A stretch of DNA of 64,000 nucleotides from Eledone cirrhosa (lineage: Eukaryota). Positions 4,851-60,215 of this stretch are shown piece after piece. The stretch covers positions 76,942,001-77,006,000 of the forward strand of contig OZ024744.1 in assembly GCA_964016885.1 (NCBI GenBank). The letters are read 5' to 3'. Below the pieces are notes generated by a model, which did not search any database, was not told the DNA's origin, and saw only the letters and a program-made list of their open reading frames with translations. Positions within the stretch are counted from its first letter, which is position 1. Each line of letters begins with the position of its first letter. A program made the translations under genes and the position numbers.

Positions 4851-4888
4851 GCCAACAATGTTTCGTCCTATTAAGGACTCATCAGGGC
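4851..4888 (-). ncRNA. Canonical minimal type I hammerhead ribozyme
   Basis: GCC-CTGATGA-GTCCT-TAAT-AGGAC-GAAAC-ATT-GTT-GGC. All conserved core nucleotides are present and helices I, II and III pair. Confidence 0.85.
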
Positions 4889-7619: not shown

Positions 7620-8385
7620 GCGGCAGATTGAACATTGCAGCCTGAGTGGCGTGCTCCAGCTGCGCTTAGCAGACAAAATGGCAAAGGCATTGCCGCAGAG
7701 AATGGCCAACGACAAACGCTGCAACAATCACCCTACATCACGGGGCATACACCAGCTCGGACGGTATGCTTTAGCTGCGCCCAGCAGAAAAATAAAATGC
7801 CGAAGTTATTAGCCGAGGAGAATGACCAGTGATAAACGCTGCAACAACCACCCTACCTCACTGAGCTCCTACCGTAGGCGGACTGCATGCTTCAAAAATG
7901 GCGAAAGCATTGCTGAGGAGAATGACCAGTGACAAACGCTGCAACAACCACCCTACCTCACTGAGCTCCTACCGTAGGCGGACTGCATGCTTCAAAAATG
8001 GCGAAAGCATTGCTGAGGAGAATGACCAGTGACAAACGCTGCAACAACCACCCTACCTCACTGAGCTCCTACCGTAGGCGGACTGCATGCTTCAAAAATG
8101 GCGAAAGCATTGCTGAGGAGAATGACCAGTGACAAACGCTGCAACAACCACCCTACCTCACTGAGCTCCTACCGTAGGCGGACTGCATGCTTCAAAAATG
8201 GCGAAAGCATTGCTGAGGAGAATGACCAGTGACAAACGCTGCAACAACCACCCTACCTCACTGAGCTCCTACCGTAGGCGGACTGCATGCTTCAAAAATG
8301 GCGAAAGCATTGCTGAGGAGAATGACCAGTGACAAACGCTGCAACGGCCATCTTACCTCACAGAGCTCTACCTTAGGCGAACTGC
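7620..8385 (-). repeat. 100-bp tandem array derived from a CRE-type LINE C-terminus
   Basis: GAGGAGAATGACCAGTG starts at 7815, 7915, 8015, 8115, 8215 and 8315. The minus strand reads GWLLQRLSLVILLSNAFAIF, matching LQRLSLAILCGNAFAILSA in the adjacent diverged unit. Confidence 0.8.
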
Positions 8386-8399
8386 GTAATGTAATTTAA

Positions 8400-8790
8400 T
8401 TGTTTCTACTTTTGGCACAAGCCCAGCAATTACCCCAGTGCATTACTGGTACTTTATTTTATCAGCCCCGTAATGGTGAAAGGCAAATTTAACCCCGGCG
8501 GGATTTGAACTCAGAACGTAAAGGGCCATAATGCTATGCTGCAATGCAAGTTGTCCGATGCTCTACCGATACTGCCAACCCAATAATAATACTAATAATA
8601 ATATTTTTTTTTTACTTTTGGTACAAGGCAGGGCAATTAACCCTGGGTGTTACTGGCACTTTATTTTATCAACCCCGTAACGATGAAAGGCAAAGCTAAC
8701 CTCGGCGGGATTTGAACTCAGAACGTAAAGGGCCATAACTCTATGCTGCAAAGCATGGTGTCTGACGTTCTACCGATTCTGCCAATCCGT
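8400..8790 (-). mobile_element. Two SINE family 1 copies
   Basis: Same core and tail as 962-1380, separated by (AAT)n. Confidence 0.85.
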
Positions 8791-13313: not shown

Positions 13314-13973
13314 ATCCTCTACGGAACTACCTTAGGAACTCACCCACGGACATACACTCAAAATATATTTTTTCCTACACTTCACCTACATCCACAACAC
13401 GTATAAACACCACACACACGTGCGTACCACCACATATTTACACACTCAGCCTCCGTAATCCTCTCCCCCCACCCATCTGACCCCTCCCCATCCACACACG
13501 CACACACACACCGACCTACACCCTACCCCACACACACCTTTTCCTGAACATGCAACCCCGTTCTTCCCCCAACCCTTGCTTTCACATACACACACACACG
13601 CGTACACCTACACACACACACACCACCTTCAGCCTTCCCCGCTCGGACACCCCGCCTCCCTCTCCCCACTCCACCCGCCACCACCCCTACACGCCCCACA
13701 CACTTCCCCCACTTGTTTTACTTCATGTTTATTTTTATTTTTATTATGCTTTTATATTTAATTTCATTTGTACCGTTTCCTCTCACCCCCTTTTTTCTAT
13801 ATGTCTCTCCCCCACTCACCCACACACCCTTGGAACTCTCTTCCCACACACTTTTCGCCTGAAGAAGGGCTTATGCCCGAAACGTCGTTCCCCACCACCA
13901 CCCCACTCTCAAGAACGTGAAACTAATAAACCTTTGTTCCTACTGCCTCTCTGTTTTGTTCCCGTTTAATTTT

Positions 13974-13975
<2 letters not shown>
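13310..13975 (+). mobile_element. PLE 3' UTR/pLTR with minimal HHR-like motif at 13857-13888
   Basis: CTGAAGA-A-GGGC-TTAT-GCCC-GAAACGTC, then GTGAAACTAATAAA, flanked by (TA)n. Related to the end of the GIY-YIG element at 58720-59740. Confidence 0.65.
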
Positions 13976-14030
<55 letters not shown>

Positions 14031-14327
14031 TGTATATATATATATATAAAAATATGTAATGATAAATAAGAAAATATGATAAACTCCGTATATAAACAAT
14101 ATCATAGAAGTTGAATTATTTTGTTTTCTCCGTACTTTCTTCCGTGGTTCTAACTTGGAAATTATGTCTGTGACACAGAAATATCTAATGACAAAGATAG
14201 TTATCATAAAATTATAGTCTAGACATATTATAACTCCTAGTCTCAAGAATCTCGGATCTCCAAAGAATCAAGCTGGGATAAAATCGGATTTTATAACAAC
14301 AGCAAGAGCAGCTGCAGTAACAACAAC

Positions 14328-14402: not shown

Positions 14403-14900
14403 GGTTTCTGATTTTAGCAATTTAAATCGGTCGCAATGCATTACTGGTACTTTATTTTATCGACCCCCGTAGGGATGGATGAAAGGCAAAGTTAACCTCG
14501 GCGAGATTTGAAACTCAGAACGTAAAGGGCCATAACTCTACGATAACAATGGTTTCTGATTTAGGTATAAGGCCAGGAATTTTGGGGGAAAGGAAAAGAG
14601 AGTTAAATCAACCTCAGTGCATTACTGGTACTTTATTTTATCGACCCTGTAAGGATGAAAAGCAAAGCTAATCTCGGCGAGATTTGCACTCAGAACGTAA
14701 AGGGCCGTAACTCTATAATAACAATGGTTTCTGAATGAGGCACAAGACCAGGAATTTTGGGGGAAAGGGAAACAGATTTAAATCGACCCCAGTGTATTAC
14801 TGGTACTTTATTTTATCGACCCTGTAAGGATGAAAGGAAAAACTAACCTCTGCCGGATTTGAACTTAGAACATAAAAGGCCGTACTGCAAAGCATGGTGT
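14403..14900 (-). mobile_element. Three head-to-tail SINE family 1 copies
   Basis: Core motif repeated three times, adjacent to (CAA)n. Confidence 0.85.
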
Positions 14901-19320: not shown

Positions 19321-19412
19321 ATATTTTATCAGACACTTTGAACACTTTGAAACCAATTATAACTTGTATCCAAAAAGATTCTATAATAGTAATATACATA
19401 GATAAATACACA

Positions 19413-19546
<134 letters not shown>

Positions 19547-19612
19547 AGATCCCGGTGAAAGCAGCGATTCTTTCCTTAAACTTTAATCTGTACTAAAATA
19601 CACAGACACACT

Positions 19613-19643
<31 letters not shown>

Positions 19644-19644
19644 T

Positions 19645-20510
19645 TCTATTTAGTACGGCTGTTACTTAAATATATACATACTACTGTACGTCTGTATACA
19701 TATATGTATGTACGTGTACATACTTATATTAAAGTAACAGCCGTACTAAGAGTGGGAAATGAAATTTCGTTTCATTTTTTCCGTTTATCGTTTTCGGTGC
19801 ACCCGGCCGATTAACCCACTCGATATGCAAATTGGGCTACTCAGCCGTTAATATGCATAAGGTAAGTATATACGTTCAACAATCTGGCAGGAAGGTATAC
19901 GTTTCTGACGATAGCTAATAAGCTTGAAACTAGTACAGCGTTCCTTTGTCAGTGTTGAACAAACGAGCAACGATGGTTGCTGGACACTACGGCTTAATAC
20001 GGGATGTTTGTTTACAAACACACCGAGTATTATAATAAATGTTCGGTGAATCCATACGTACATATATATGTGTGTGCATGTATGTATATATATATATACA
20101 TACTACTGTACGTCTGTATACATATATGTATGTACGTGTACATACTTATATTTAAGTAACAGCCGTACTCAGAGTGAGAAATGAAATTTCGTTTCATTTT
20201 TTCCGTTTATCGTTTTCGGGGCACCCGGCTGATTAACCCACTCGATATGCAAATTGGGCTATTCAGACGTTAATATGCATAAGGTAAGTATATACGTTCA
20301 ACAATCTGGCAGGAAGGTATACGTTGCCGACGATAGCTAATAAGCTTGAAACTAGTACAACGTTTCTTTGTCAGTGTTGAACAAACGAGCAACGATGGTT
20401 GCTGGACACTACGGCTTAATACGGGATGTTTGTTTACAAACACACCGAGCATTATAATAAATGTTCGGTGAATCCATACGTACATATATATATGTGTGCA
20501 TGTATGTATA
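19645..20510 (+). mobile_element. Tandem dimer of a 422-bp non-coding retrozyme-like unit, one HHR per unit
   Basis: Exact 422-bp offset with HHRs at 19899-19941 and 20321-20363. A short inverted tip lies at about 19650-19668, and the flanks are (TA)n. Confidence 0.8.
20321..20363 (+). ncRNA. Type I hammerhead motif (also 19899-19941 on plus and 49433-49475 on minus)
   Basis: Consensus ACGTTG-CTGACGA-T-AGCT-AATA-AGCT-T-GAAAC-TA-GTA-CAACGT. This copy has CCGACGA, while the other two have CTGACGA. Confidence 0.75.
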
Positions 20511-20511
20511 T

Positions 20512-21064
20512 AACCCTTGTATCATAGACACCCTATATATTTCCAGGGGTACTTAGTACCTGTGGGGATATTATCTTCTTTTAATATTCTCCGTTATGTA
20601 GAGAACAAATCTGTTGTTCTATTTAGCTGCTATTTTTAGTGGCGAGGTAGACAATACGTCTATGTTTACTTCCGCTTCTACTACGGACTGGTTCACGCAT
20701 AGGTCAAATTTTCGGCCCCATTCGATCCTGTGCTAGCTGGCAGATGGCAATATATTTTGCCGTTCCTGGGACTTTTAGTCCTAGGAAAGGAAAATGCTTT
20801 CTGATGATCTAAACTTTTCCATTGGAGGTCCCTATGGATCTCCAATCTTTTGTGAAGTGAAACCGATCGGTAAAAGCAATTGGAATAGGTAAATATTTAA
20901 ATTATATTTTTTTATTTATTTTCAAAAATTGTTTGAATCTTGCTTGCTCCGCTTATCTCAATATTATAGTTCTGGTATGTCAAATTAATACCATAGAACA
21001 ACCCTTGTATCATAGACACCCTATATATTTCCAGGGGTACTAAGAACCTGTGGGGATGTTAACT

Positions 21065-21072
<8 letters not shown>
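20512..21072 (+). mobile_element. 488-bp non-coding unit with ~70-bp terminal redundancy and an internal HHR
   Basis: AACCCTTGTATCATAGACACC.. occurs at 20512 and 21000, with the HHR at 20795-20878. Confidence 0.7.
20795..20878 (+). ncRNA. Type I hammerhead motif with extended helix II
   Basis: TGCTTT-CTGATGA-TCTAA-ACTT..[ATTGGAGGTCC-CTAT-GGATCTCCAAT]..AAGT-GAAAC-CGATCG-GTA-AAAGCA, with a perfect 6-bp helix I. Confidence 0.7.
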
Positions 21073-21115
<43 letters not shown>

Positions 21116-21130
21116 TATATATATATATAA

Positions 21131-21983
21131 ATAATTGGTATATCTACCAACATATTTATACAGAAGTATACTTATGCTAGCAAGATATAGGTTTTGTCTT
21201 AGTAACTTTGTGGTTCAATACAAAAATGTAGAACAATTATATGAAAGACGTAAAATAAGAAAATTATAATAATTAACTTACTTAAGTTTCACTACTTAGT
21301 TTCTGAAAGGGGATATACATAGTGTTCAAAACCATGGAGAATTCCTTTCTTCATGAGAGAGTCAATTCTCGGCTAAGATCCCTGGCGATAGGCGGACACA
21401 GGGATCTCAAACAAAAATAATTCAGTGAATGGAAAAGAAGCAAGCGCGGACTAAATTTCAAGACACTGAAAATTTCACTACCTTCCCGGTCAGTGGCAAA
21501 TTCAAAAGAATCAATCACGTGTCATCGAGGTTAATCTGTGAGGAGTGGGGTGTTAAAAAGACAGTAGCCAAAATATTACTATGAATCATAATAGTAATTC
21601 AGGCAAATTTTTGCTCAACAAATAATTTGGAGATAATTATAAAGAATTAGTATATCTACCAACATATTTATACAGAAGTATACTTATGCTAGCAAGATAT
21701 AGGTTTTGTCTTAGTAACTTTGTGGTTCAATACAAAAATGTAGAACAATTATATGAAAGACATAAAATAAGAAAATTATAATAATTAACTTACTTACTTA
21801 AGTTTTTGTTTGAGATCCCTGTGTCCGCCTATCGCCAGGGATCTTAGCCGATAATTGACTCCCTGATGAAAAAAGGAATTTTCCATGGTTTTGAATACTA
21901 TGTATATCCCCTTTCAGAAACTAATTAGTTGGAGTGAAACTTAAGTAAGTAAGTTAATTATTATAATTTTCTTATTTTACGTC

Positions 21984-21990
<7 letters not shown>
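21131..21990. mobile_element. 512-bp unit as partial tandem plus inverted tip with HHR
   Basis: 21138-21283 repeats at 21650-21800, and about 21240-21417 is inverted at about 21790-21990. The HHR is at 21858-21935. Confidence 0.7.
21858..21935 (+). ncRNA. Type I hammerhead motif with long loop II
   Basis: ACTCC-CTGATGA-AAAAAGG..CCTTTCA-GAAAC-TAATTA-GTT-GGAGT. Helix I is a perfect 5 bp and loop III is palindromic. The inverted copy has GAAAGG, which pairs with CCTTTC. Confidence 0.65.
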
Positions 21991-22031
<41 letters not shown>

Positions 22032-22080
22032 GTATATATGTATATATATATATGTATATATATATATATGTATATATATG

Positions 22081-22171
<91 letters not shown>

Positions 22172-22447
22172 GGAGGTGAGTTTTATTGTAGTACAATAAA
22201 GCAATGCAGATATCGGATAAGAAGCATTCTACAGTTTGAAGGTTAAAAAACACTTGTGAATATATGTTGATTCAAAACTGCACTATTCACAAGTGTTTTT
22301 TAACCTTCATATCATGTCTGCCTATTTTATCTTATGAAAACACAAATATTATTGCATGATGATATTTGTTTTTGAAATGCGCATAATAAAATACATGGAA
22401 CTCTTTTAACCATCTTTTGATCTTATATATATATATATATATATATA

Positions 22448-22599: not shown

Positions 22600-24415
22600 C
22601 GTTTGTATTTGTAAAGCCAAAACAATGCAGGTATGGACATAGAATATAAATGCAAATGCAAAAGATATTGTTAACAATTAGTCTTTTACCTTAAATTTAT
22701 TTAAATGTCCTTAATTTTCGAGGTAATATCTCTTCTTCGGAGAGAAGTAAAGCGGTTAAACCAGTGTTCTAAATGGCTTGCCAAGTCATGCTGACAGGAA
22801 ATGGTATAGAGTATCTGTTCTATCTCTAATGTCAAAGAGTTAAGGTTAGGTGGATAAAAAGTAGTCTCCCTTTAAAAGGGGTTTTGTACATGTATGTTTA
22901 AGTGTGTGGGAGAATACGCAAGGTGTAAGTATGTGTGTGTGTGTGTGTGTGTGTGAGTGTGAGAAGATATGTCTATACGTAAATGTGGGGGATAGATGCT
23001 CTCTCGTGTTAGAACTGGTCTTTGTGTGTGTATGTGTGTGTGTGCGTGTGTGTGTGGGAGGGGGGTAAGTATGGGGCTAGATGCTCTATCAAGTTATAAA
23101 TTGGGTGTTGAGTTCTAGTCTATTATATGTTGTGTTTTGTCTATAATTAGTGCTTCTTTAATTCTAAGATTGTCGAGGTTTCTTTCCTTAGTTTCTATCC
23201 TAATTGTTATGGTTTTGTCGATGTTTTTGCATTTTACTAGGTGTTTCTTAAATGAGGAAGCGTTAGTATTGAGGTGTTCTTTTATTCTTATGTGAAGTAG
23301 TCTGGTGGTGCTACCTACGTAGAAGTTGCTGCATTTGTCGCACTCTAGTCTGTATACGACGTAAGCCTGGTGGCATCGGTCTGTGTCGTTGATGTGGCAG
23401 TTGGCTAGCCTGCAGCGGCTGTCATGTCTGGTGGAGTGTCTTTTGGTTAGCTGTCCGCGTAGAGAAGGTCCTGAGTGGGCTAGTTGGATATCTAGTCCCT
23501 CTCGTCTGATAGCTCTGCGGATGGGCTGTTGTTGTTTCATCACTGAAGTGTGGGAGCTTCAGGAAGCAAGTGTTAGTGCCTCGGGTGTGGTGTCCTCTGT
23601 TCTTTCTGGCACGGTTCGTGGTGGATGTCGGTATCCGTTCAGTTTGAGTACTTCCCAGAAATGTGTGGTCTGTGTGTCTCGGTCTCTAGCGTCGGTGCAT
23701 TTGTTCCGGATACGTGTAATTCGTTCCTTATGTATCCGAACTAAGCGCCGGCTGGGAGGGCCGATCTGAAATGTACGAACAGGTGCCTGCTGGCGGGTTT
23801 TTAAGAATTAAGGAAGCACTAATTATAGACAAAACACAACCACCAATCAATAATAGACTAGAACTCAACACCCAATTTATAACTTGATAGACCATCTAGC
23901 CCCATACTTACACACACACCCCGCCCACACCCACGCACATGCACACACACACACACATGCCCCTACACCTCCACTTATTCTCTCTCACACACACATACAC
24001 ACACAAAGACCAGTTCTAACACGAGAGAGCATCTATCCCCCACATTTACGTATAGACATATCTTCTCACACTCACACACACACACACATACTTACACCTT
24101 TCACGTATTCTCCCACACACTTAAACATACATATACAAAACCCCTTTTAAAGGGAGACTACTCTTTATCCACCTAACCTTAACTCTTTGACATTAGAGAT
24201 AAAACAGATACTCTATACCATTTCGTGTCAGCATGACTTGGCAAGCTATTTAGAACACTGGTTTAACCGCTTTACTTCCCTCCGGAGAAGAGTTATTATC
24301 TCGAAAATTAAGGACATTTAAATAAATTTAAGGTAAAAGACTAATTGTCAACAATATCCTTTTGCATTTGCATTTATATTCTATGTCCATACCTGCATTG
24401 TTTTGGCTTTATAAA
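22600..24415 (-). mobile_element. 5'-truncated Penelope-like element with inverted copy of its 3' end
   Basis: About 22600-23170 is inverted at about 23805-24415. It contains a GIY-YIG ORF and degenerate minimal HHRs at 22708-22744 (-) and 24278-24314 (+), and has (TA)n flanks. Confidence 0.85.
23115..23543 (-). pseudogene. PLE GIY-YIG endonuclease domain remnant
   Basis: C..C linker followed by VVYRLECDKCSNFYVGSTTRLLHIRIKEH..FKKH..LRIKEALII. Confidence 0.85.
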
Positions 24416-24792: not shown

Positions 24793-26910
24793 AAGAGGTT
24801 CGTTGTTGTGATAATGGTCAGCAGGGATGTGTGTGCGAACCGCAGCCTGTTGACAGTTCAAATACCTATTAAGACAAGTGTGTGTGTGGGGGCGGTGTAG
24901 CAGAGTAATTCGTTGTAGAGAGATGGTCGGTAGGAATGTGTCTGTACGTGTGTCGGGGATAGTTTAACATGTTAAAAGATATTTTTCAGCTCTTGTCTTA
25001 TACGGAGCAGTGTGTGTGTGTGGGTGTGTGGGGGGGTGTAGCAGAGTAATTCGTGGTAGAGGGATGGTCAGTAGGAATGTGTCTGTACGTGTGTGGGGGA
25101 TATTTTAACATGTTAAAAGATATTTTTCAGCTCTTGTCTTATACGGAGAAGTGTGTGTGTCGGTGTGTGGGTGTGTGTGTGCTTGAGGGTGTGGGTGTCT
25201 GTGTGTGTGTATATATGTCTCTGTGTATGTTAATGTACGCGTGTGTATGTGTGTGTGTATATATGTGTGTGTGGGTGGACTAGTATTTTTGTGATACTGG
25301 TAAAAATGGTGTACATTTTTCGATATTTTCAGTAGAAACGATTCTCTCAATAGAACATCAAAAACCTTAATAATAAAAGGTGTGAAATGATATATAGTAT
25401 TGGCATAATACCAAGGTGTGTGTGAGTGTCCAGATTGTACGTACTGCAAGGGGAATCCATTAGGCCTTGCCGTATTGGAATACTTGTGTACAAATATCTA
25501 TGTGCCCATCAGTGTGCAATGCATGTGTGCGTTTATGTATGTGTGTGTGTGTGTGTATAGCAGAGTAATTCGTGGTAGAGGGATGGTCAGTAGGAATGTG
25601 TCTGTACGTGTGTGGGGGATATTTTAACATGTTAAAAGATATTTTTCAGCTCTTGTCTTATACGGAGCAGTGTGTGTGTGTGTGTGTGTGTATGTCTCTT
25701 TGTATGTTAATGTACGCGTGTGCATATGTGTGTGTATATATATGTGTGTGTGTGTATATATGTGTGTGTGTGTGTGTGTGTGAGAATGTGTGTGTGTGTG
25801 GGTGGACCAGTATTTTTGTGATGCTGGTAAAAATGGTGTACATTATTCGATATTTTCAGTAAAAACGATTCTCTCAATAGAACATCAAAAACCTTAATAA
25901 TAAAAGGTGTGAAATGATATATAGTATTGGCATAAGACCAAGGTGTGTGTGAGTGTCCAGATTGTACGTACTGCAAGGGGAATCCATTAGGCCTTGCCGT
26001 ATTGGAATACTTGTATACAAATATGTATGTGCCCATCAGTGTGCAATGCATGTGTGCGTTTATGTATGTGTGTGTGTCGGCACCTTTATATCTATAGACA
26101 TCAAAAGGTATGCAAATTTGTGTATATTTGTGTTGCACCATAGAACATGTGTGTTTACGTATGTCATTGTATTTATATGTTGATAGAGATGTATGCTGAT
26201 GTAGGTATGTATGTTGACGTGTGTATGTTGTGGGTTCGTCTTAGGGAGAAGCGTTTAGACGGGGTCCGTATTTGTTAATAAAGTGAGATTCCTTGCTGAT
26301 GCGCTGGGTGTGGTTGGCATTATCTTTAAATTTGTAGAGGGGAAAGATTCTGAAGTTGGGATGATTTTGGGCGGCACAGGTATCAATGTGTTCACTCAGT
26401 GGTATTTTCCTGTATTCCCGTATTTTAATTTGGGATCTATGAACAGTCATGCGTTGGTGGAGGCTGTTTTTGGTCTGGCCTATGTATTGTTCTCGACAAC
26501 CTGAGCAAGTTAATACATATATTAGATTTTCTGATGCGCATGTGAAATTGTGTTTTACTATAAAATGTTGTCCTTCTTTGAAATAGAATTCCGAACCCTC
26601 TATTAGGTTGATGCATATGCCACAGTTGGGTCTATCGCATCTTTTTACTGTGGGTTTCGTTGTTGTGGTTGGCAGTACTTTGGCATGTGTTAGGATGTTT
26701 TTCATTGACTTAGATTGTCTTTTGCTCTTTATGATATCGTGTGTTCGTAGGATTTGGTTCATTCTATGGTCCTTTTTCAACACAGGGATGTTCTGGAGGA
26801 TGGTGTCAAAGGCCTCATTGTTGAGGGGGTTGTGTGTGGAGATGTATGGAAGAGCTTTTAGTTTCGGTTGATTTACTTTAGGGTGTCTAAGATCCTGGGT
26901 ACTGAGTTTT
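24480..26910 (-). mobile_element. 5'-truncated Penelope-like element with long, internally duplicated 3' UTR
   Basis: GIY-YIG ORF 26241-26783, a ~520-bp duplication in the UTR, (GTA)n at 24713-24792, and a degenerate U3-A8 HHR at 24547-24585. Confidence 0.8.
26241..26783 (-). pseudogene. PLE GIY-YIG endonuclease domain (frame open, element truncated)
   Basis: CDRPNCGIC..NFTCASENLIYVLTCSGCREQYIGQTKNSLHQRMTVHRSQI..LSEH..RISKESHFI..LN. Confidence 0.9.
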
Positions 26911-26912
26911 AT

Positions 26913-26969
<57 letters not shown>

Positions 26970-27149
26970 CGTTTGTGTTGGATGGTTTAACTAATACTTA
27001 GAACTTGTCATTCGCATTAGCAGACGGTGATATGTAACATCCATCGTAGATTTGCTAACTTGTTGTTGGTGCTGGAGCGGATTTAAATGTTTCGAAAAAA
27101 CACTATACGTTCTTCTATAGCCGGCGGCTTACACAATAGTTGTTTTAAC

Positions 27150-28029: not shown

Positions 28030-30375
28030 CCAAGATCACTGTAAAAATAAAAACATCATCACAGATTAACAAACAGCTGGAAAGAAAGGGGTTTGGGGAT
28101 GTGCTGAACAACTCCTAATCAACAAAACTGCGATGTCGGAGGTGCGACAACTTAGGAGGAATATGACTACAGTCTGGCTGGACTACAGGAAAGTTTTCGA
28201 TTCTGTTCCCCACTCCTCGATGATAGAGTCCCTCCGACTTGCTAAAGTCCCAGACATTATTATCAGAGCCATAGAGAAGCTGTTTTCTTCTTAGGCTACT
28301 TACTATCCTAAAGTTAAAGACAGAGAAGGAGGACTCTATTTTCACTGATAAAATAAAATATCGCAGGGGTATATTTCAAGGAGACAGTCTCTCTGTGATA
28401 TTATTTATCCTGTCATTAAACCCCTTGTCCTTTCTTCTCAAGAAATGTGTAGGATACATCATTGGCTCACAGGACAGAAATGCGAACCTAACCCATAATT
28501 TCTTAGTGGATGATCTGAAACTCTATGCCAAGAACATGGATGGGATGAAGAAAAATCTTAACCAGGTTACAACATTCTCAAATGATATAGGAATGTAGTT
28601 TGGCCAAGATAAATGCTTATATATGACTGTAAAGCGGGGAAAAACAACAACCCAATCTAGCAACATTTGTATCAATGGCCTAACTGTTTCACCGATATCT
28701 GATGAGGAATCTACAGATACCTGGAGAGAGATGAGAACATATCCTATAATTTTATCTGTAATAAGGAGCGCGTAACCAGGGAATACTACACCCGATTAAG
28801 AAAGATATGGTCATCGGAACTCTCTGCGCAAAACAAAACAGTGGCTCACAATGTGTTTGCTGTGCCTGTCCTAACACCAACGTTTGGAATACTCAATTGG
28901 ACGATAGACGAAATCCGAGCAATTGATGTTAGAACTCGAAAAATACTAAACAACACCGAAAACTTCCACATCAACAGTGACATAGACCACCTTTACTTGA
29001 AAGGTAAGCAGGGAGGCAGAGGCTTAACATCAGTCCAGAAAGCATTTGAATGTCGCATCATATCCCTCCGACAACATGTGCGAACCTCGAAGCGTAGGAG
29101 CCCGTCTCTCGAACAAGTCTATCTGCATGAAACAGATAAGATCATGAGAGTTGGGAAGGAACTCTTCGAAAGATATTCTCTGTGTGATAATCAAAATCTC
29201 ACACCCAGGGAAGTCGCTCAGCAGTATCGCAGTGAATCCATGGATAAAAAACTGCATGCTTATCAGCAAAAAGTCATGCATGGATATGTTACCAGGAAGC
29301 TCCAGAGTGAGAGTAATATAGATAAAGAAAGTAGTCTATCTTGGACCAACAACCGCTATATTGGCTCCCACTTTGAAGGATACGCTTTTGCAATCCAAGA
29401 ACAGGAAATCAACACGAAATACCTGTTTCACAAAAGAGATAGGGATGCAGGCAAAACACCTAGATGTGCTAACAAGTGCAGACTCTGCAGAATTAATATC
29501 GAAGATGTCACCCCTGTCATAAACAGCTGTCCAAAGATGTCATCGTGGTACTATCTACCTATGAGGCATGATGTAGTGGCCAAAACACTGTACAATGCAA
29601 TTCGTAGAAAAGATAGCCCGATAATAAACACATTAAAAACTTCAGCAACGTGGAAGACATACATATACATAATATGAAAGAGTACTGGTGGAATCTTCCA
29701 GTAAAAGCCCCAATAAAATGCAGGCATAACAGACCAGATGTTATGATATGGGACAGGGAAAAGAAAGCAGGCACAGTCTGATATGGGACAGGGAAAAGAA
29801 AGCAGGCACAGTAGTGGAAATTAGCTGCCCAGATTAGTGAAAAGGAGAATATTTATGGAGAACTGATGAGAAATCTGCAGATACTCCACACTGATTACAC
29901 CTACAGATTTATGCCTGTGATTATTGGGGCACTGGGATATGTTAGTAACTGCCTCAATACAAATCATGAGAAGCTAGGCTTCACAGGAACAGAAAGAACA
30001 CAACTAGTTAGGAAATTACAAGTGCAATCCATTAATGGAACAGTAAAAATATGTAAAACATTCCAAAAATTCTGCATCTAATAACTGCATAAACACATGT
30101 ACAGAAACTAAGCATATACACATGCACACATACAACTCAAAACATACACATCCACACATACAATAACATCCATATCTACACATGCATGCATACATAAATA
30201 TCTACCTAGTTGATGTTGTGTAAATTCCAATGAGAGAGCCTTGTGTCTATGTTAGAAACCGACTCTCTCTTTATTGGGAAAAAATTTGTGAAATTATAAA
30301 ACCAGAAGAATATACATAAATTATAAAACCAGAAGAATATACATAAATTATAAAACCAGAAGAATATACATAAAT
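28030..30375 (+). mobile_element. 5'-truncated R4/Dong-type non-LTR retrotransposon (RT + zinc knuckle + RLE), frameshifted
   Basis: WLDYRKVFDSVPHS, RGIFQGDSLS, FLVDDLKLY, CRLC..SC, RHDVVAK, HNRPD, EISCP, MPVIIGALG. The 3' end has a 27-bp unit repeated three times. Confidence 0.85.
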
Positions 30376-30605: not shown

Positions 30606-30699
30606 CCGTATATCGACAGTCAATCTACTGTCAAATCGACCGAAGAAACAATGTTTCCGTTGCTCTTTCTAATTGCTAATACTATATATCTATCTATCT

Positions 30700-33186
30700 A
30701 ACGAGGGAGTCAAAGCAGTTAGCTGGGCCCGAGTGACGGAGGCAAAAAGTGGCAACAAGTCCACGATTCGGTTTTTTAAGGATCAAAGCGGACGCGTGAT
30801 ACGTGAGCCGAAGCAGATGTGTGCAGCCTTTCAGCAGCACTTTGCTCAACTGTTCGGGCGGGGCGGCGCACCGGGAGGGGCTATAGATTTCGCTCCATAC
30901 CTCGACGGCCTACCGCGACTCTCGCACAGCGAGGCAAAGTTCTGCGAAAAGCCGATTTCAGCCGCTGAGATAGGGGACGCGCTGAGCCAATGCGGCAAAC
31001 GCAAATCTCCAGGTCTCGACGGTCTACCCTACGAATTTTACGTAGCAATGCCGGACTTATTCTCCGGTCTACTGGAAGCGGTCTACTGCAACTGGCAACA
31101 GTACGGGAGAATTCCCAGTTCTGTAACCGGGGGCGTAGTCACACTAGTCAGGAAGGACGAGAATAAGGGGGATGACATGGGCAACTTCCGGCCCATAACT
31201 CTGCTAAACACAGAGTTACAGATTTTGGCCAAGGTGTTGGCAAAGAGGCTGGCGCTTGTCGTCGAGAACCTGGTGGGAGAAGCGCAGACATGCACAATCC
31301 CGACCTGCTCGATGCGGCAGGCTTCGGACCCGTGTTCAGGGGCTGAATTGCTGCAATGCACAACAGCAACATCTGCTCAAGGGTCAAGGTGAACGGCTAC
31401 CTCTCGGAGCCGTTCCATATTACGCGATCTATTCGACAGGGATGCCCTCTCTCCTCCCTTCTGTACGTGCTGACTCTCGAGCCACTAGTGCGGAAGTTGG
31501 AGCTATTGCAGAGCATCCCTCTGGAACCGGGACTGCGGAAAGCGGCGTCGGCATACGCCTACGATGTGACAGTAATGGTGTCGAGCGCCTCGCAAATCGA
31601 GGAAGTCGGCACCTTACTGAAAGAATACGAAGGTTTCACAGGAGCGAAGCTGAACCGGGACAAGTCCATTGGTTTGCAACTCGGATCGTGGAGAGGCAAA
31701 CCGATGCCTTCCGATGGCGTCGTCGGACGCTGGACGGAAGGACCGGTAAAGTTGCTCGGGGTCTGGTTTGGTCCCGACCTCCAGGTGGAGAAGAACTGGA
31801 ACGAAGTGACGGCCAAGGTGTTTGCACTCACCCAGAAGTGGGCCGAGTGCAAACTATCCATGAAAGGTCGAGCAGAGGTGGCGAAGACTTTTATAGCGTC
31901 CGCCATCTACTACCGCTTGACCGTCGTGCCTTATCCAGCCAAAACGCTCGCCAAAATGGAGCGCGCGCTCTTCCAATTCCTTTGGAAGAGGCGGGCTCCT
32001 TTGGTGAGAAGATCCATCTGCTGCCAACACCCTTCTAACGGAGGGCTGTGGATGATGTGGATGCCGTGGTTGACGATGGGCAAACACGCGCTCAGGCTGC
32101 GGCATCTCTACGTATTCCTCACCAGACAACCGATGTGGGCCTCGTTCGTGAGGCGAGCCTTCCCACGACTCGTCTTGCTTACCGAGCTGCAGTCCTGGGT
32201 CAAGCAAAGACCGAGGAAAATGGGCGACTGGCACATCGAATGTGCTCAGGCGCTCACAGCCCTCTGGCAGACGGACCCGGCGATCAGTGGAGACTCCACT
32301 TCGTCATTCTATAGAGGGTTGATCCGCAGCAAGTGCGACGATGCGCTCGGTGAAACTCTAGACATAGAGGAAGATGAACTGGCCAGTCTGTTCGGTAGGA
32401 CCTTCCGCCCGGGACCGATGGACAACTTCCAAAAGTCCCTGGCCTGGCAGTGCTACCGAGGAGCTCTACCAGTTCGAGACAAGCTCTAAAGACATGGACG
32501 CCCGGGCAGGGACCCTGCAAAAAAGATCGGTCCGAGGTTCGTGCGTAACGAAGAAACCGTCGCGCACGCATTCATACACTGCCCGGGCGTCACTGACCTG
32601 TGGGGCTATGTAGAACGACTTTTGTCGCGGGTGGGACCAATCCAGTTGACCACCGAGTCCATTCTCATGATCAAACCGCCACTCTCCTTCAAAAACGAAG
32701 GAGAGGCGGTTTTCCTTTGTGTGATAGCTATGGCGAAAGAGGTTGTATGGTGGACAAGGTTGAAATGGCTGAGGTCAGACACCTTTCTCTCCGGCCAACA
32801 ACTGATTCTATTTTTCAAATACCACTTTGGAAGAAGAATCAGGATGGAGAGAGAGAGGTGCTGTACCCCAGCAAGTTTTATGAAAGGTGGGTGAAAGTGG
32901 CGAGAATGGTACGAGTGAATGAGCCTTCTCTCTATATCAGCATGTAGGTTGAGGAAAAGGAGGAGGAGAGGAAAGGAGTACAAACTCTTCGTACTCCTGG
33001 AGATGAGGGTTGCACATTTTTTCGGGGGTATGTGTTACCCATATGAACTGTCTCCCCCTATTGGGGAAAATCGACCACTTTTTTAAATTGCATTTGTGAT
33101 AACATTTTACACGTTTTTATTGTATGTAAACTTCCCCCTTTGTATTTTTCCCCTTCTTTTGTGCCCCTGTGGCTAATAAAGAAACA
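30700..33186 (+). mobile_element. 5'-truncated Tx1-clade (L1 group) LINE ORF2 + 3' UTR
   Basis: KSPGLDGLPYEFY, FRPITLLNTE, IRQGCPLSSLLY, AYAYDVTV (degenerate YADD), ETVAHAFIHC. Internal deletion near 31305. Ends AATAAAGAAACA+(TATC)n. Confidence 0.9.
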
Positions 33187-33214
33187 TATCTATCTATCTA
33201 TCCATCTATCTATC

Positions 33215-34228
33215 GGACGTGCGGTAGATTGCTGGTAAGTTTTTGTAAAATTTTCCATACAAAAACAGAATTTATTGTGTAAAAATTTATATTGTTTGAT
33301 AGATTAACACCCAGGCTGAATTGTCAGCCGGGTGACAATCTCAGTGTTCGCCCCACAGGGGCGGAAATTTAATTTTTTTAAATTGACAAGTTTTTAAAAT
33401 GTTCCTAACTTTAACAAATGTTCCTAACTTTAACAATGTGGGACGTACAACGAACGCTAGACTGCAAGAAGAGAAGGAAAGAGACAGAGATAACCGTTAT
33501 ATCTCCCTCTATTTCCATAGAAGTATCTATGGAAACGAACAACAACAAAACTTCGTTTCGTAAAGAGATGAATATTCACACAACAAAAGATGAAAATAAC
33601 AGCCCACAACAGACACCAAAACACACAGAAAATGCTGTAATTGAAACAATTGACACAACTACACACGAAAAAACAAACAACACCAATAAGATGAAAAATG
33701 TGAACAACCACAACAACAACAACAACAACAATGATAACAACACCACCACCAACAACAACAGCAACACGAACAACTCTACAAACAAGGAAAAGATTTCCTT
33801 TGCTCAAACCGTCCAAAAGACGGAACTGTTTACATACCTTGACATTTCCAAAGCTAGGGAGCTGTTAAGTGATGCAAAACAGTATGTAACGCTTGGTGAG
33901 AGTGGTGCTTTCAGCATCACTTCTCCTCAACAGTTACGCAGAGAAACTGTTCTAAAAACAGTAATTTTTAGGACAGTTTCAAATGTGTCAAAAAAAACAG
34001 TCCAATTATTCCAAAACGACATTGAACTGGTTCTGAAAAGTTCAATGAAGGATATTGCCTTCATCCAAAAAGGGAAACGTTTTGGAAGCATTTCGGTGTT
34101 GATGAAAGACCAATTGACAGCACAAAAAATATTCTAAATACACTGTTTAAGCAGTGGTCACCTGAAGGCTTACTGTCTTCAGCTAGCTGCAAAAAAAAAA
34201 AAAAAAGAGGCTCTACTGCCAACACCCA

Positions 34229-34269
<41 letters not shown>

Positions 34270-36596
34270 CGCAAACATAACCAAAACAAGAACAACAAAC
34301 CAAACTGCAAGCGCAGTCCCACCCAACCCCACTCCACCTAAAACCACTGCAAAAATACCCACAAACACAACAGCTCCCCAAAACATACCCCTTCCAAATA
34401 ACACAGACACCACAACAGACGAGGCCCCCTCATCATCGCCAAGTTACGATGAGGGAGAGCCTCTCCGTTCGAAAAGAAAGAAGAAAAGACACCACAAGAA
34501 CAAAAAAGCAACAAACATCACTACCAACATATAACCACCAACACAAACATTACAAACAAAAACCCCCCGTCCCGAAAACAAAACCACGACATCACTCCAA
34601 ACACAAACACTTACAACAAAACGAATGCTCACACAAGAACAACAGACAAAAACCAACACGACACAAGAACATTACACATACATAAACAGTGAAAACAAAA
34701 CTTTAATGGAGGTCATCTCCCAACTTTTTCGAACTGTGCAGACAGACCTAATTTAAAGATGATTAGGGTCCCTACGGACACCTATAAGTCTTTAAAGGAA
34801 AACTTTCCTAAGGACGTGGGTAATCCTTGTGTTAAACCCATTAACCGCGTCCTTTTAAAATGTTTCCCCACCCTTACCCCAGACACGCCCTCCCTACCAA
34901 ACATCTCCGTCCCCACCCCGCCGGAAACCACCACCCACCAAACAACCCGTCCAACACCCCCATGGAAATTGTGCAGCCTGGTCCCCAGGAGACGAAGAGG
35001 TGAGTGATTTATTTTCCTCTTCTTTTAACCAGCATGGCCAATATAAGAGTTGGATGTGTGAATGTACGCGGCCTGTGGATGCCCTGGAAACAGGGCAAAC
35101 TCTTAAACGACCTCAGGTCGCACAGTATGGATGTTGTAGCCATTTGCAAGTCCAGGATCGACAGCGAGCGACAACTGGACGGAAGGACCGGTGAAGCTGC
35201 TCGGGGTCTGGTTTGGTCCGGACCTCCAGGTGGAGAAAAACTGGAACGAAGTGACGGCCAAGGTGTTTGCACTCACGCAGAAGTGGGCCGAGTGCAAACT
35301 ATCCTTGAAAGATCGAGCGGAGGTGGCGAACACTTTTATAGCGTCCGTCATCTACTACCGCTTGACCGTCGTGCCTTGTCCAGCCCCAAAAACCAAAATG
35401 GAGCGCGCTCTTTTAATTCCTTTGGTTAGAAGATCCATCTTCTACCAACACCCTTCCAACGGAGGGCTGGGGATGCCGTGGCTGACGATGCGCAAACACG
35501 CGCTCAAGCTGCGGCATCTCTACGTATTCCTCACCGGACAACCGGTGTGGGCCCCGTTCGATAGGCGAGCCTTCCCACGACTCGTCTCGCTGACCGAGCT
35601 GCAGTCCTGGGTCAAGCAAAGACCGAGGAACATGGGCGACTGGCACATCGAATGTACTCAGGCACTCACAGCCCTCTGACAGGCGGATCCAGCGATCCGT
35701 GGAGACTCCACTTCGTCATTCTATAGAGGGTTGATTCGCAGCAAGTGCGACGACGCGCTCGGAGAAACTCTGGGCGTGGAGGAAGACGAACCGGCGACTC
35801 TGTTCGGTAGGACTTTCCGCCCGGGACCGATGGACAACTTCCAAAAGTCCCTGGCCTCGCAGTGCTACCAAGGAGCTATACCAGTTCGAGAGAAGCTCTG
35901 CAGACATGGGCGCCCGGGAAGGGACCCTTCGAAAAAGAACTGTCCGAGATGCGAGACGAAGAAACCGTCGCGCACGCATTCATAACACTGCCCGGACGTT
36001 ACCGACCTGTGGGGCTATGTAGAACGACTATTGTCGCGGGTGGGACCAATCCGGTTGACCATCGAGTCCATTCTCATGATCAAACCGCCACCCTCCTTCA
36101 AAAAAGAAGGAGAGGCGGTTTTCCTTTGTGTGATAGCTATGGCGAAAGAGGTTGTATGGTGGACAAGGTTAAAAGGGCTGAGGTCAGACACCTTTCTCTC
36201 CGGCCAACAACTGATTCTTTTTTTCAAATACCACTTTGGAAGAAGAATCAGGATGGAGAGAGAGGTGCTGTACCCCAGCAAGTTTTATGAAAGGTGGGTG
36301 AAAGTGGCGAGAATGGCCCGTGTGAATGGGCCTTCTCTCTATATCAGCCTGTAGGTTGAGGAAAAAGAGGAAGAGAGGAAAGGGGTACAAACTCTTCGTA
36401 CTCCTGGAGATGAGGGTTGCACATTTTTTTCGGGGGTATGTGCTACCCATATGAACTGTCTCCCCCTATTGGGGAAAATAGATTAACTTTTAATTTGCAT
36501 TGTGATAATATTTTACACGTTTTTATTATATGTAAACTCCCCCCCTTTCTATTTGTCCCCTTCTTTTGTGCCCATGTGGCTAATAAAGAAACATAT
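33215..36596 (+). mobile_element. Internally deleted Tx1-clade LINE retaining 5' UTR, ORF1, APE start and 3' end
   Basis: ORF1-like region 33418-34755. ORF2 start MANIRVGCVNVRGL..DVVAICKSRI (35034) is fused at about 35177 to sequence matching 31730 onward. The 3' UTR is nearly identical to the upstream copy. Confidence 0.85.
33418..34137 (+). pseudogene. Putative Tx1 ORF1 N-terminal part
   Basis: 239-aa ORF with an Asn/Thr-rich segment and SFAQTV motif, lying between the 5' UTR and the APE start. The downstream frame is broken. Confidence 0.55.
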
Positions 36597-40949: not shown

Positions 40950-42660
40950 GGTTATTATTTGTTTTTTGTTTTTTACACGCAGAAATATTCATTAGTACCG
41001 TCCTGTATTGTCCTGTGCTGTTCTTAATGTTATACTTTATGTCAAACCCTTGTGGTTAAATAAGAAAGCATAATTATTATCATTAGTGGTGTCGAACGCC
41101 AAACACATCGAGGCGATCGGCACCACTCTAAGAGAATACGAGGCAGTGACAGGAGCAATGATCAACGAAGAAAAGTCGGTGGGCCTGCAGCTCGGCACTT
41201 GGAGAGGCAGGTCCATGCCGTCCAACAGCGTCGTCGGGCGGACGGACCGGTTTAAATTGCCGGGCGTCTGGTTCGGTCCGGATCTCCAGACGGACAAAAA
41301 CTGGGACGAGGTGACGAGCAGGGTGGCCTCTCTCATCTAGAAATGGGCCGAGATGAAGCTATCCCTGAAAGGTCGAGCGGAGGTGGCGAACGCGTACATC
41401 GCGTCCGTCATCTACTACCGCCTGACCGTCGTGACTTGTCATAAGCCTCACCTGACTGCACTGGGGCGTTTGCTCTTTCGCCTTTTGTGGAAGGGACGAG
41501 CTCCGATGGTCAGGCGGGTCCATCTGCTGTCAACACCCGCTACGCTGAGGGCTGGTCATGCCGTAGCTGATGATGCGCAGACATGCACACAGCCTACGAC
41601 ATCTCCACCTCTTCCTCGACGGTGATCAGGTGTGGTCGCCCTTTGCTAGACGCATGTTTCCCCAGTTCGTCTCATTGACGGAGCTACAGTCCGGCGTCAA
41701 GCGAAGTCCGAGAGGGAAACTGGAATGTCTTCAGGCGCTCACAGCCCTCGACCAGCTGGGCAATGCGGTCGGTGGAAACTCTACCTTGGCGTTCTATAGA
41801 GAGTTAGTGGAGGGAAAGAGCGACGACGTACTTGGGGAGACTCTGGGCGTCGACGAAAATCAACTAGCCAATCTCTTCGGGAGAATTTTCGGGCCGAGGC
41901 CCATGGAAAACTTCCAGAAATCCCTGGCCTTGCCAGTTCGGGATAAATTCTACAGGCATGGAAGTGCCGTTAGCCGGGCCTGTCCGAGATGCGCGCAGGG
42001 CGACGAAACCGTCCTGCACGCACTCGTCCAGTGTCCGAGAATTGCTGACTTGTGGGTTTATGTCGAACACCTGCTGTCATGTGTAGAACGGATCTGGCTA
42101 TCAGCTGAGTCCATCGCGAGGATTGCCCCGCCGCCTTCCTTTAGCCGGGAAGGGCAGGCAGTTTTTATCTGCCTGGTGGCCATGATAAAAGAGATCGTAT
42201 GGTGGACACGTCTGAAAGGGTTGAAGACGGTACTTTCCTCTTCGGTGACGCCCTCATTAACCTTTTCAGGTTTCACCTGAAAAGGAAAATCAGAGTGGAG
42301 AGGGAAGTGCTGCCTTCCAGCCAGTTTGTTGAAAGGTGGGTGAGAGAGGCAAGAATGGCCCGTGTGAATGGGCCTACCCTGAGCGTGTGCCTGTAGTATC
42401 GTAGGAGGAAAACTGGAAGAGGGCACTTGCCCTAGCGGTCAGGGTAACCGTGGCTTTTTGGGGGGCGTTCTCCACGAGCGACCCTCGGAAGTCTCCCCCT
42501 ATTGGGGAATTTTTCATTGTTTTCTTTTTTGTTACATCCTCTGTTTTTGTTTTTTTTTTACACGCAGAAATGCCCATTTGTACCGTCCTGTATTGTTCTG
42601 TGTTGTACTTAATGTTATAGTTTGTGTCAACCCTTGTGGTTAATAAAGAAAGCATTATTA
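40950..42660 (+). mobile_element. Second Tx1 subfamily: short 3'-UTR stub (40950-41070) followed by a 5'-truncated copy (41085-42660)
   Basis: GAMINEEKSVGLQLG, CPRCAQGDETVLHALVQC. Both pieces end (A/T)AAGAAAGCA+(TTA)n-like sequence. Confidence 0.85.
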
Positions 42661-49056: not shown

Positions 49057-49169
49057 TATATATATAATACATACATGCATACAAACATACATGCAAAGAT
49101 ACATACAAATATAAATACACATTTACATAAATACATATATATGTTGTATGTATATATATATATATATAC

Positions 49170-49729
49170 ATGGAAAAAATGAAACGAAATTTCATTTCTC
49201 AATCTTAGTACCGCTGTTACTTAAATATAAGTATGTATACGTACATACATATATGTATACAGACGTACAGTAGTATGTATATATATACATACATGCACAC
49301 ATATATATATGTACGTATGGATTTACCGAGCATTTATTATAATGCACGGTTTGTTTGTAAACAAACATCCCGAATTAAACCGTACAGTGTTTAGCAACCA
49401 TCGTTGCCCTTTTGTTCAACACTGACAAAGGAACGATGTACTAGTTTCAAGTTTATTAGCTATCGTCAGCACCGTATAGCTTCCTGCCAGATGGTTGAAC
49501 GTCTGAAAGTATATACTTTCCTTATGCATATTAACGGCTTTGTCAGTGTTGAACAAAAGGGCAACGATGGTTGCTAGACACTACGGCTTAATTCAGGATG
49601 TTTGTTTACAAACAAATCGAGCATTATAATAAATGTTTGTTAAATCCATACGTACATATATATATATATATGTGTGCATGTATGTATATATATATACATA
49701 CTTACTGTACGTCTGTATACATATATGTA

Positions 49730-49735
<6 letters not shown>
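49170..49735. mobile_element. Third copy of the 422-bp HHR unit (minus strand) with inverted partial copy
   Basis: 49170-49538 is the reverse complement of the 19645-20510 unit in circularly permuted order. 49539-49735 is the same sequence in plus orientation. Confidence 0.8.
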
Positions 49736-49810
<75 letters not shown>

Positions 49811-58719: not shown

Positions 58720-59739
58720 ACGGTTACATTCTAAGCCTTCCGCTTTAGGGACTCCTTCAACTGCACCTCCACCAGCCTTGACCATGGGTTCCGTTGTACC
58801 CTATGCGGAACCATCTACCTTGGTTAGACTGGCCGTCGTCTGGCCGACAGATTTTCTGAACACCTTCGGGACATCCGGGTTGGCAACCCGATACCGATCT
58901 CCTGACATTTTCTATCCACCGGCCACTCCACGCGCCACCTCAGTGTCTTTGGGTTCACACAATGTGCCGGACCTGCTGACTCACGCTGGCGGAGAGAACA
59001 GAAACTTATTTTCCCCTTTCGAACTTCTCATCCCACTAACCTTAATGCCGCACCCATCTTCCTATAATCTGCCATATATTTTCTAACACACAGTAAGCAT
59101 ACTTCCTTTATCCTATGACACATACTCGTCAATACATACACTCTTACATACAAATCACAGTTAGATACTTTACACTTACACATTATAAACTTCAACATAC
59201 ACACGTTAAAATGTAATCATTCACTCACACATACAAATCCACTCTTCTCACGGGCATGCGCTAACTCTGCCAGACAAAATAACTTCACAAAATAACTTCA
59301 ACTTACACATACAGTAATACAGTATACACATTCAAACTTACATTCACTCACACATACAAGTCCACTACCACATACCACATGGATATACATATACACTCAC
59401 TTTCTTTTTTAGTTTACATATTTTTACCTTTAAAATCACACACGTTTAAACATACACTTACACTCACACATAAAACGACAATAATACACACACACACTCC
59501 ACTTTGCGTTCCAACTCGTTACCAAGAGTACCTAACGGTTCTCTTGTTTTCACTCTTCATTTTTTATTTTTTTTTATTTACATGAACCTCCTTTATTTCT
59601 GTTTCTCCATTGTGATCCTGTCTCTACTTTGCACTCCTGAAGAAGGGTTTAAACCCGACACGTCGAACTTTCTTTCCTCTTTTCCATATAAAGCGTGAAA
59701 CTAATAAGAGTTTTTGTACCTCTGTTTGTTGTATCCTTG

Positions 59740-59740
<1 letters not shown>
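58720..59740 (+). mobile_element. Penelope-like element 3' fragment (GIY-YIG pseudogene 58741-59067, 3' UTR, HHR-like motif 59635-59666)
   Basis: RFRDSFNCTSTSL..CTLCGTIYLG*TGRRLADRFSEHLRDI..HF..REQKLIF..LN, in a frame missed by the ORF track because of stops. The motif reads CTGAAGA-A-GGGT-TTAA-ACCC-GACACGTC. Confidence 0.8.
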
Positions 59741-59783
<43 letters not shown>

Positions 59784-60215
59784 GATATTAAATAAATGGA
59801 AACTATATTTATAAAACCATATTTATTTCATTATATATATTTCAGGGATATCATATTAACAATATGTTATGCCTTCCTCAGACAAAATACAATATAGACA
59901 GTTTTATAGATAAATAGATTTGACATACCGTTCAACATCGACTTGTATTTGAAAAAGTTGATTTGGCAGTGAAAAATTGTAAACAGAAAGAAAGAAAGAG
60001 AGAAAGAAGGGAAGAAAGAAAGAAAACGGAGAAAAAGAAGAAAAAGAAGAAATGCATGCAACAAAATAGAGAGATGGAAAGATAGATAAAGAGAAGAACT
60101 TCATGTAAAGAAACAGAGAGAGATATATAGAGAGAGAGGAAATAGATAGAGATAGATATATATAGAGAAAAGTAGGTAGTTGAACATCCGTTGAATGAAC
60201 GTATCAATGATACAT

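Follow-up and report, generated by a model that had tools for sequence, protein, structure and literature searches.

The window analysed here, a stretch of 64,000 nt on the Eledone cirrhosa contig OZ024744.1, contains copies of a 422-bp unit at two loci, near 20 and 49 kb (Table 1). The first locus is a tandem dimer, whose two units show 14 differences in 422 positions, and its right end adjoins another, unrelated hammerhead element. The short inverted piece at its head is absent from the first-pass annotation of this DNA; it ends near unit positions 20171-20181, not at 20210. The second locus consists of two arms joined head to head. Positions within the unit are given below as window coordinates of the tandem. 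The unit has a GC content of 0.374. No ORF of at least 120 aa was found within either locus, where only an unrelated fragment upstream touches; a tRNA gene was not found in 19400-22200, and no LTR pair was seen by eye. The circular monomer folds with z = −6.0 on the plus strand and −4.7 on the minus strand (60 shuffles), which is strong on both and so not strand-specific; without the microsatellite block, the values are −4.1 and −3.8.

Table 1. Features of the 422-bp unit and its surroundings at the two loci, in window coordinates.
Feature	Position	Strand	Remarks
Short inverted piece at tandem head	19652-19674	(-)	23 of 23 bases as in unit 20147-20169; outside it (AT)n
Tandem dimer of the 422-bp unit	19667-20512	(+)	Period 422, 2.0 copies
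Hammerhead, copy 1	19899-19941	(+)	U-C mismatch closing helix I, from a private change at 19904
Main family 3' end	20204-20210	(+)	Putative RT start site; directly after a stem-loop
Hammerhead, copy 2	20321-20363	(+)	C replaces U at core position 4
Left flank, 49 kb	49141-49165		(AT)n-type microsatellite
Left arm, 49 kb	49166-49539	(-)	Reverse of unit 19843-20210; blastn 89.7% over 378 columns
Hammerhead, 49-kb copy	49433-49475	(-)	Type I
Head-to-head junction	49538-49539		2 bases common to both arms (blastn, alignment)
Right arm, 49 kb	49538-49734	(+)	Unit 19944-20135; no hammerhead core
Right flank, 49 kb	49735-49804		(TA)n microsatellite

All three copies of the hammerhead have the core, helices I and II of 6 and 4 bp and a palindromic helix III. 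In the 49-kb copy the core is complete, helix II contains a single C-A mismatch and has a U-U at its base, and helix III is 1 bp long and carries a palindromic tetraloop. The canonical metazoan type I hammerhead has been described with helices I and II of 6 and 4 bp, a helix III of 1-2 bp and a palindromic loop, and it works as a dimer (PMC4209133). As far as can be judged from its letters, the motif of the 422-bp unit is of this type, and its ribozyme appears to be built to cleave as a dimer via the palindromic helix III; the two hammerhead segments pair in a predicted co-fold. Axolotl retrozymes also have a 1-bp helix III and a U-U at the base of helix II (PMC7229834). The motif described here combines the 1-bp helix III and palindromic tetraloop of HHR_Amex1 with the U-U of HHR_Amex2.

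A 31-nt core pattern has exactly three matches in the window and none in any of 100 shuffles. A descriptor scan for hammerheads returned five distinct motifs in the window, while nine of ten block shuffles gave none and the remaining one gave a single motif. At the gathering score, Rfam has no hammerhead match in the window. With E values up to 10, the surroundings of the two loci gave 49 and 82 weak matches, none to a hammerhead and nearly all of them artefacts of AT-rich hairpins or inverted repeats below the gathering score. We infer that the Rfam models miss the short helix III of this motif.

Each of the three copies in the window carries one damaging change. The first-pass annotation had placed the helix I letters at 20321-20363 and 49433-49475, and they are present at both places, on the plus strand in the former and on the minus strand in the latter. 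It had also reported different damage in the copies at 19.9 and 20.3 kb; both changes, in the closing pair of helix I and at U4, were found, but the 49-kb copy has a C-A mismatch in its helix II that had been overlooked. At 19904, a letter other than that of copy 1 makes up 99.85% of the depth in the public run X1. The tandem copy does not contain the two consecutive complete hammerheads that Li et al. (2026) use as a rule for "active" elements, which is a statement about this tandem in the window and not about the whole family.

At the 49-kb locus, the fold-back geometry that had been noted earlier is present, with 49166-49539(-) and 49538-49734(+) as its arms. The left arm is a 5'-truncated monomer, which contains the hammerhead and stops at the main 3' end of the family. 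Although it had been thought to read across the unit junction, that "junction" is only the start of the tandem, and the left arm lies within one monomer ending at 20210. It crosses the predicted cleavage site intact by 93 nt; therefore, its template was uncleaved or religated. An uncleaved linear transcript explains the left arm as well as a multimeric or circular template does. The right arm starts 8 nt past the predicted cleavage site, which may fit run-off on cleaved RNA, a single case in which chance is possible. Its match to the unit (49538-49753 against 19944-20154, 87.6%) is unambiguous only up to 49734, corresponding to 20135, so that its 3' end, at 20135 or slightly later, lies near a second 3' end of the family. 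The two arms differ from each other at eight sites and by a 2-nt insertion in 117 columns, whereas the tandem units show one difference in 115 columns over the corresponding comparison. Two of the arm differences, at 19983 and the 2-nt insertion at 19987, are family polymorphisms. The divergence of the arms therefore points to two templates or to later conversion, not to the snap-back of one strand. The flanks contain only an 11-nt AT-rich direct repeat, which we did not accept as a TSD.

The family was surveyed in four public runs (X1, X23, X7 and X4) by comparison with one unit, 19810-20231. The runs X14-X19, with their small shares, were left out, and X1 could be the very sample from which the window derives. 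The 422-bp unit was found in all four runs: in 10,935 of 16.5 million contigs of X1, in 79,073 reads of X23, and in 135 and 47 contigs of X7 and X4, respectively. The copies are dispersed and have unique flanks. Pattern scans for the repeat returned no locus in metagenome contigs and none in viral contigs.

The main 3' end follows the predicted cleavage site (19935/19936) at a distance of 269-275 nt. Position 20210 followed by (AT)n was observed in 52 X1 contigs, the largest count among the X1 loose ends listed (n = 6), and in four X7 contigs. A second group of 3' ends, at 20143-20154 and followed by a microsatellite, comprises 6,862 X23 reads, one X7 contig and three X4 contigs among the loose ends listed. 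The loose ends considered throughout are 24 of 528, and the interval 20050-20107 was skipped, so that ends there are invisible. The distance between the two 3' ends (20210 and about 20135-20154) is 56-75 nt, blurred by (AT)n. The earlier suggestion that the ends of the copies are permuted is not supported: the 3' ends observed cluster at 20204-20210 and at about 20135-20154, and both arms of the 49-kb locus end there.

Eight of the 15 joints listed, out of 70, go back 408-422 nt and are spread over all four runs; copies longer than one unit are therefore common. The 20210 end is read through into the next unit in all four runs, with more than 100 read starts in X23. Another five of the 15 joints, all from X23, are putative strand switches between 19877-19921 and 20149-20163 at differing points, with one or two read starts each and ambiguous orientation. 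Several other positions were rejected as termini. Ends at 20185-20189 (16,165 X23 reads at 20188, 11,500 at 20189 and 1,053 at 20185; agreement 0.34-0.36) were attributed to chimeras of a restriction library because they coincide with the AATT site at 20185-20188 and do not occur among the X1 ends listed. Molecule ends at 19830/19833 coincide with the other AATT site. The loose ends at 19872, 19878, 19963 and 19988 were assigned to subfamily indels or divergent variants. A divergent subfamily has other sequence after 19963 (11,102 X23 reads, agreement 0.94), with unit 19963-19988 in X1, X23 and X7, and it carries linked changes where helix I is extended, at 19891-19898 and 19946.

Covariation in helix I had been claimed from the copies in the window. 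At pair 4, copy 2 has U-A, copy 1 has U-G and the 49-kb copy has G-U. The letters are thus as claimed and pairing is kept (U-A to G-U), but the signal is not significant: one of ten pairs changes on both sides among the three copies, and a score as high as that observed comes up in 198 of 500 shuffles. The variants of the family are more informative in their placement. Among the 40 of 77 variants listed, six fall in the 43-nt motif: 19902 has two of them and its partner 19938 has one, and the others are at N7, in loop II and at the private site 19904. None of those listed falls at core, helix II or helix III sites. A post hoc chance figure for this placement (80 of 123,410 sets) was set aside, since it covers only the 40 of 77 variants listed and the free sites had been picked after these were viewed.

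In the two mate classes of X23, purines make up 94 and 43% at 19902, against T shares of 92 and 45% at 19938; the corresponding values are 86/86% in X7, 33/54% in X1 and 2/15% in X4, a disagreement of 21 points in X1 and of 13 in X4. We compared 37 profiles from the listed variants (35 variants and three sums, minus 19938; four near-fixed variants and one confined to X23 were left out). The profile closest to 19938 is that of 19902 (rms 0.109, r 0.98), followed by 19946 (G; rms 0.175, r 0.978). The A variant at 19902 is a true swap of A-U for U-A, and the options for pair 4 are U-A, U-G, A-U and G-U. The joint shift of 19902 and 19938 supports selection on the predicted fold, but the shares are unphased, per-site values from at most three studies, and linked subfamily sites of common ancestry also shift together. 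Outside the hammerhead, covariation is mixed, and several double changes break predicted pairs (19964/19983 and 20021/20048). The proposal that the unit is a real ribozyme-bearing mobile RNA is accordingly backed by the family-wide variant patterns in the public runs, not by the comparison of three copies.

The window contains several ribozyme families. The element that adjoins the right end of the tandem (20512-21071) is a second, unrelated hammerhead repeat with 72-nt direct repeats 488 apart (94%). Its type I motif, with the core at 20801(+), combines a long helix II with a palindromic helix III of 10 nt, and a (TA)n tract follows the repeat. Either it was inserted later, with a deletion, or the template was switched; two unrelated hammerhead repeats could have entered together as a single composite insertion at 19650-21071. 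A third hammerhead element (21126-21992, core at 21863(+)) shows a complex, PLE-like arrangement of direct and inverted parts between (TA)n tracts. Further hammerhead-like cores are located at 4885(-), 13859(+), 59881(-) and 63055(-), and about 13858-14058 is 70% similar to 59636-59825.

Fragments of mobile elements are also present. Two of the five proteins scanned contain GIY-YIG fragments passing the Pfam cut-off, and neither shares sequence with the 422-bp unit. A 5'-truncated PLE fragment at 26241-26990(-) contains a GIY-YIG domain with a CX2-5CxxC linker, adjoins (TA)n and is Neptune-like by the description in PMC8557442. The GIY-YIG fragment at 22920-24100 (23115-23558, minus strand) has an inverted repeat at its sides, in which 23804-24100 matches 23165-22920 at 76%. 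Broken copies of a non-LTR retrotransposon occupy 30673-36354 and 41567-42280, with an RVT_1 match in 31347-32486. A 323-aa frame at 28706-29677 resembles by eye the C-terminal part of a retrotransposon protein and has no Pfam match at E 0.01. Tandem arrays lie at 7815-8385 (period 100), 8403-8785 (period 207) and 14437-14884 (period 175), the last two of which share SINE-like sequence.

The 422-bp unit has the sequence features of non-LTR retrozymes, that is, a type I hammerhead per unit, head-to-tail repeats within 150-450 bp, a GC content below 50% and no coding capacity. The animal families described in PMC7229834 (350-390 bp in mussel, 330/350 bp in axolotl) are likewise tandem and non-coding; with its GC of 37%, its type I hammerhead and PLE fragments in the genome, the unit resembles them by their description, and its predicted fold is self-paired, though on both strands alike. 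It differs from them in its head-to-head inversions and clustered 3' ends, and the word "inverted" does not occur in the main text of PMC7229834. PLE insertions have been described as 5'-truncated partial tandems at microsatellite targets, often with an inverted truncated copy and with a tail of 30-40 bp at one end (PMC8557442), and head-to-head inversions have been found to be the commonest (PMC3846280). A PLE protein nicks AT-rich DNA, extends both strands and uses two internal start sites on the RNA (PMC11167929). The unit shares with these endonuclease-positive PLEs the inverted 5'-truncated copy at the head, the two 3' points, the AT-rich or (TA)n target and a type I hammerhead in the repeat. 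In contrast to them, it has no RT or endonuclease ORF, the offset of its 3' ends is 56-75 nt instead of the published 30-40, and its hammerhead is of canonical type, whereas that of PLEs is minimal with a long helix II.

By its sequence, the repeat appears to be a new family. The host DNA is animal and rich in microsatellites, with SINEs and a repeat pattern that would suit an octopus. We found no report of octopus retrozymes or of inverted retrozyme insertions in the literature searched; supplementary family lists may include the unit. The words "ribozyme" and "retrozyme" do not occur in the main text of PMC13282606. Li, Clavereau and Pollet (2026; 10.64898/2026.07.22.740005) likewise concluded that the retrozymes of animals derive from PLEs and are non-autonomous. 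They argue from co-occurrence and homology in vertebrates and leave the mechanism open, whereas the evidence presented here is insertion anatomy. PMC7229834 names PLEs only as a strong candidate for the driver of retrozymes.

An inverted 5'-truncated copy stands at the head of both loci in the window. Because both fit the PLE insertion pattern, PLE-driven integration with fixed internal starts is suggested. The 422-bp unit is probably a non-LTR retrozyme that is not autonomous and is copied into the genome by a PLE, through the RT and the GIY-YIG endonuclease of the latter. No ORF for RT or GIY-YIG is present in the unit or linked to it, so it does not qualify as an autonomous PLE, and no driver PLE sharing sequence with it was found in the window. 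A solo pLTR would be admissible as an alternative label; movement is probably by a Penelope-like RT/endonuclease in either case.

In the proposed mechanism, multimeric arrays would be transcribed and would cleave themselves into 422-nt monomers, which may circularise. The PLE protein would nick a (TA)n tract on both strands and would start reverse transcription inside the RNA, at about 20210 or about 20135-20154, and not at the ribozyme cut. Two cDNAs that stopped at variable 5' points could then be joined through microhomology, giving a locus such as that at 49 kb. Copies would decay after insertion, hence the damage in all three copies in the window. A multimeric or circular template is plausible because the 20210 end is read through in the four runs and because the dimer units share none of four near-fixed private changes. 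The latter weakly favours insertion as a dimer, four sites being little evidence. Against this reading, only one of nine retrozyme dimers was cleaved in vitro in the work of Li et al. (10.64898/2026.07.22.740005).

A more specific form of this reading is rather doubtful. Here, the unit would be a stand-alone circular-RNA retrozyme, and a dimeric PLE enzyme would prime both nicked (TA)n strands on two different RNAs, with fixed internal starts 200-275 nt from the cut and with jumps between retrozyme families.

The strongest competitor, which we regard as unlikely, sees in the unit no more than a terminal repeat (pLTR) belonging to some longer, autonomous PLE. Its insertions would be 5'-truncated, its tandems would have arisen by later local DNA duplication, and the unit would never have been mobile alone. 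This would account just as well for the inversions, the clustering of 3' ends and the TA targets, the left arm at 49 kb needs only one uncleaved monomer, and the origin of a retrozyme from a PLE terminus by local amplification has been proposed by Li et al. (10.64898/2026.07.22.740005). However, no ORF of at least 120 aa touches either locus except for the unrelated upstream fragment. No ORF-like continuation appears among the 24 of 528 loose ends listed, where the cut at 19810 would hide one starting at 19789. The read-through at 20210 in four runs also argues against a pLTR, as does, weakly, the absence of shared private changes in the dimer.

The first-pass annotation had favoured rolling-circle reverse transcription that enters a circular RNA at random and yields circularly permuted copies. 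Circular RNAs have been shown for other retrozymes and proposed as RT templates (PMC7229834), and uncleaved RNA was the dominant substrate of one PLE studied in vitro (PMC11167929), which counts against this model. Multimers exist, the left arm crosses the cleavage site, and the inverted piece of the tandem ends away from 20210, all of which would suit random entry. Nevertheless, in four runs the 3' ends gather at two places, both of which are used by the 49-kb arms, and only the 5' ends vary, which makes this model very improbable.

We give scarcely any credence to a non-autonomous DNA element (a fold-back MITE or a Helentron/DINE-1-like element) with an incidental hammerhead motif. In its favour, the unit has inverted ends, TA-rich target sites, a microsatellite block in its interior and, close to its end, a stem-loop, a combination that resembles DINE-1-type elements. 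According to the earlier proposal, fixed termini with TIRs or TSDs would have marked a DNA transposon; the 3' termini are indeed rather constant, but the inner points of inversion vary from locus to locus. They lie at 19843/19944 at 49 kb, at 20147/about 20090 at 19.6 kb and at at least five other, putative pairs. Arm lengths thus differ by locus as well, and a TIR of fixed length with a TSD was not found. Such variable inversion points fit Penelope-like retrotransposition, not a DNA transposon. The divergence between the 49-kb arms and the variation of the hammerhead at tolerated sites also speak against a DNA element. Finally, a satellite repeat with a chance or non-functional hammerhead-like motif would agree with the missing Rfam match and the three damaged copies, but its probability is close to nil in view of the number of motifs relative to the block shuffles, the avoidance of the core by the listed variants (40 of 77) and the dispersed copies with unique flanks.

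Retrozymes and hammerheads in PLE repeats are already known; the element itself is ordinary, and its value lies in its insertion anatomy. If the reading in which a PLE enzyme primes on two RNAs is true, the loci would provide direct genomic evidence for the mechanism by which retrozymes are mobilised. With so very abundant a family, in which PLE-type inversions occur and 3' ends recur at two places, the question of the driver becomes testable.
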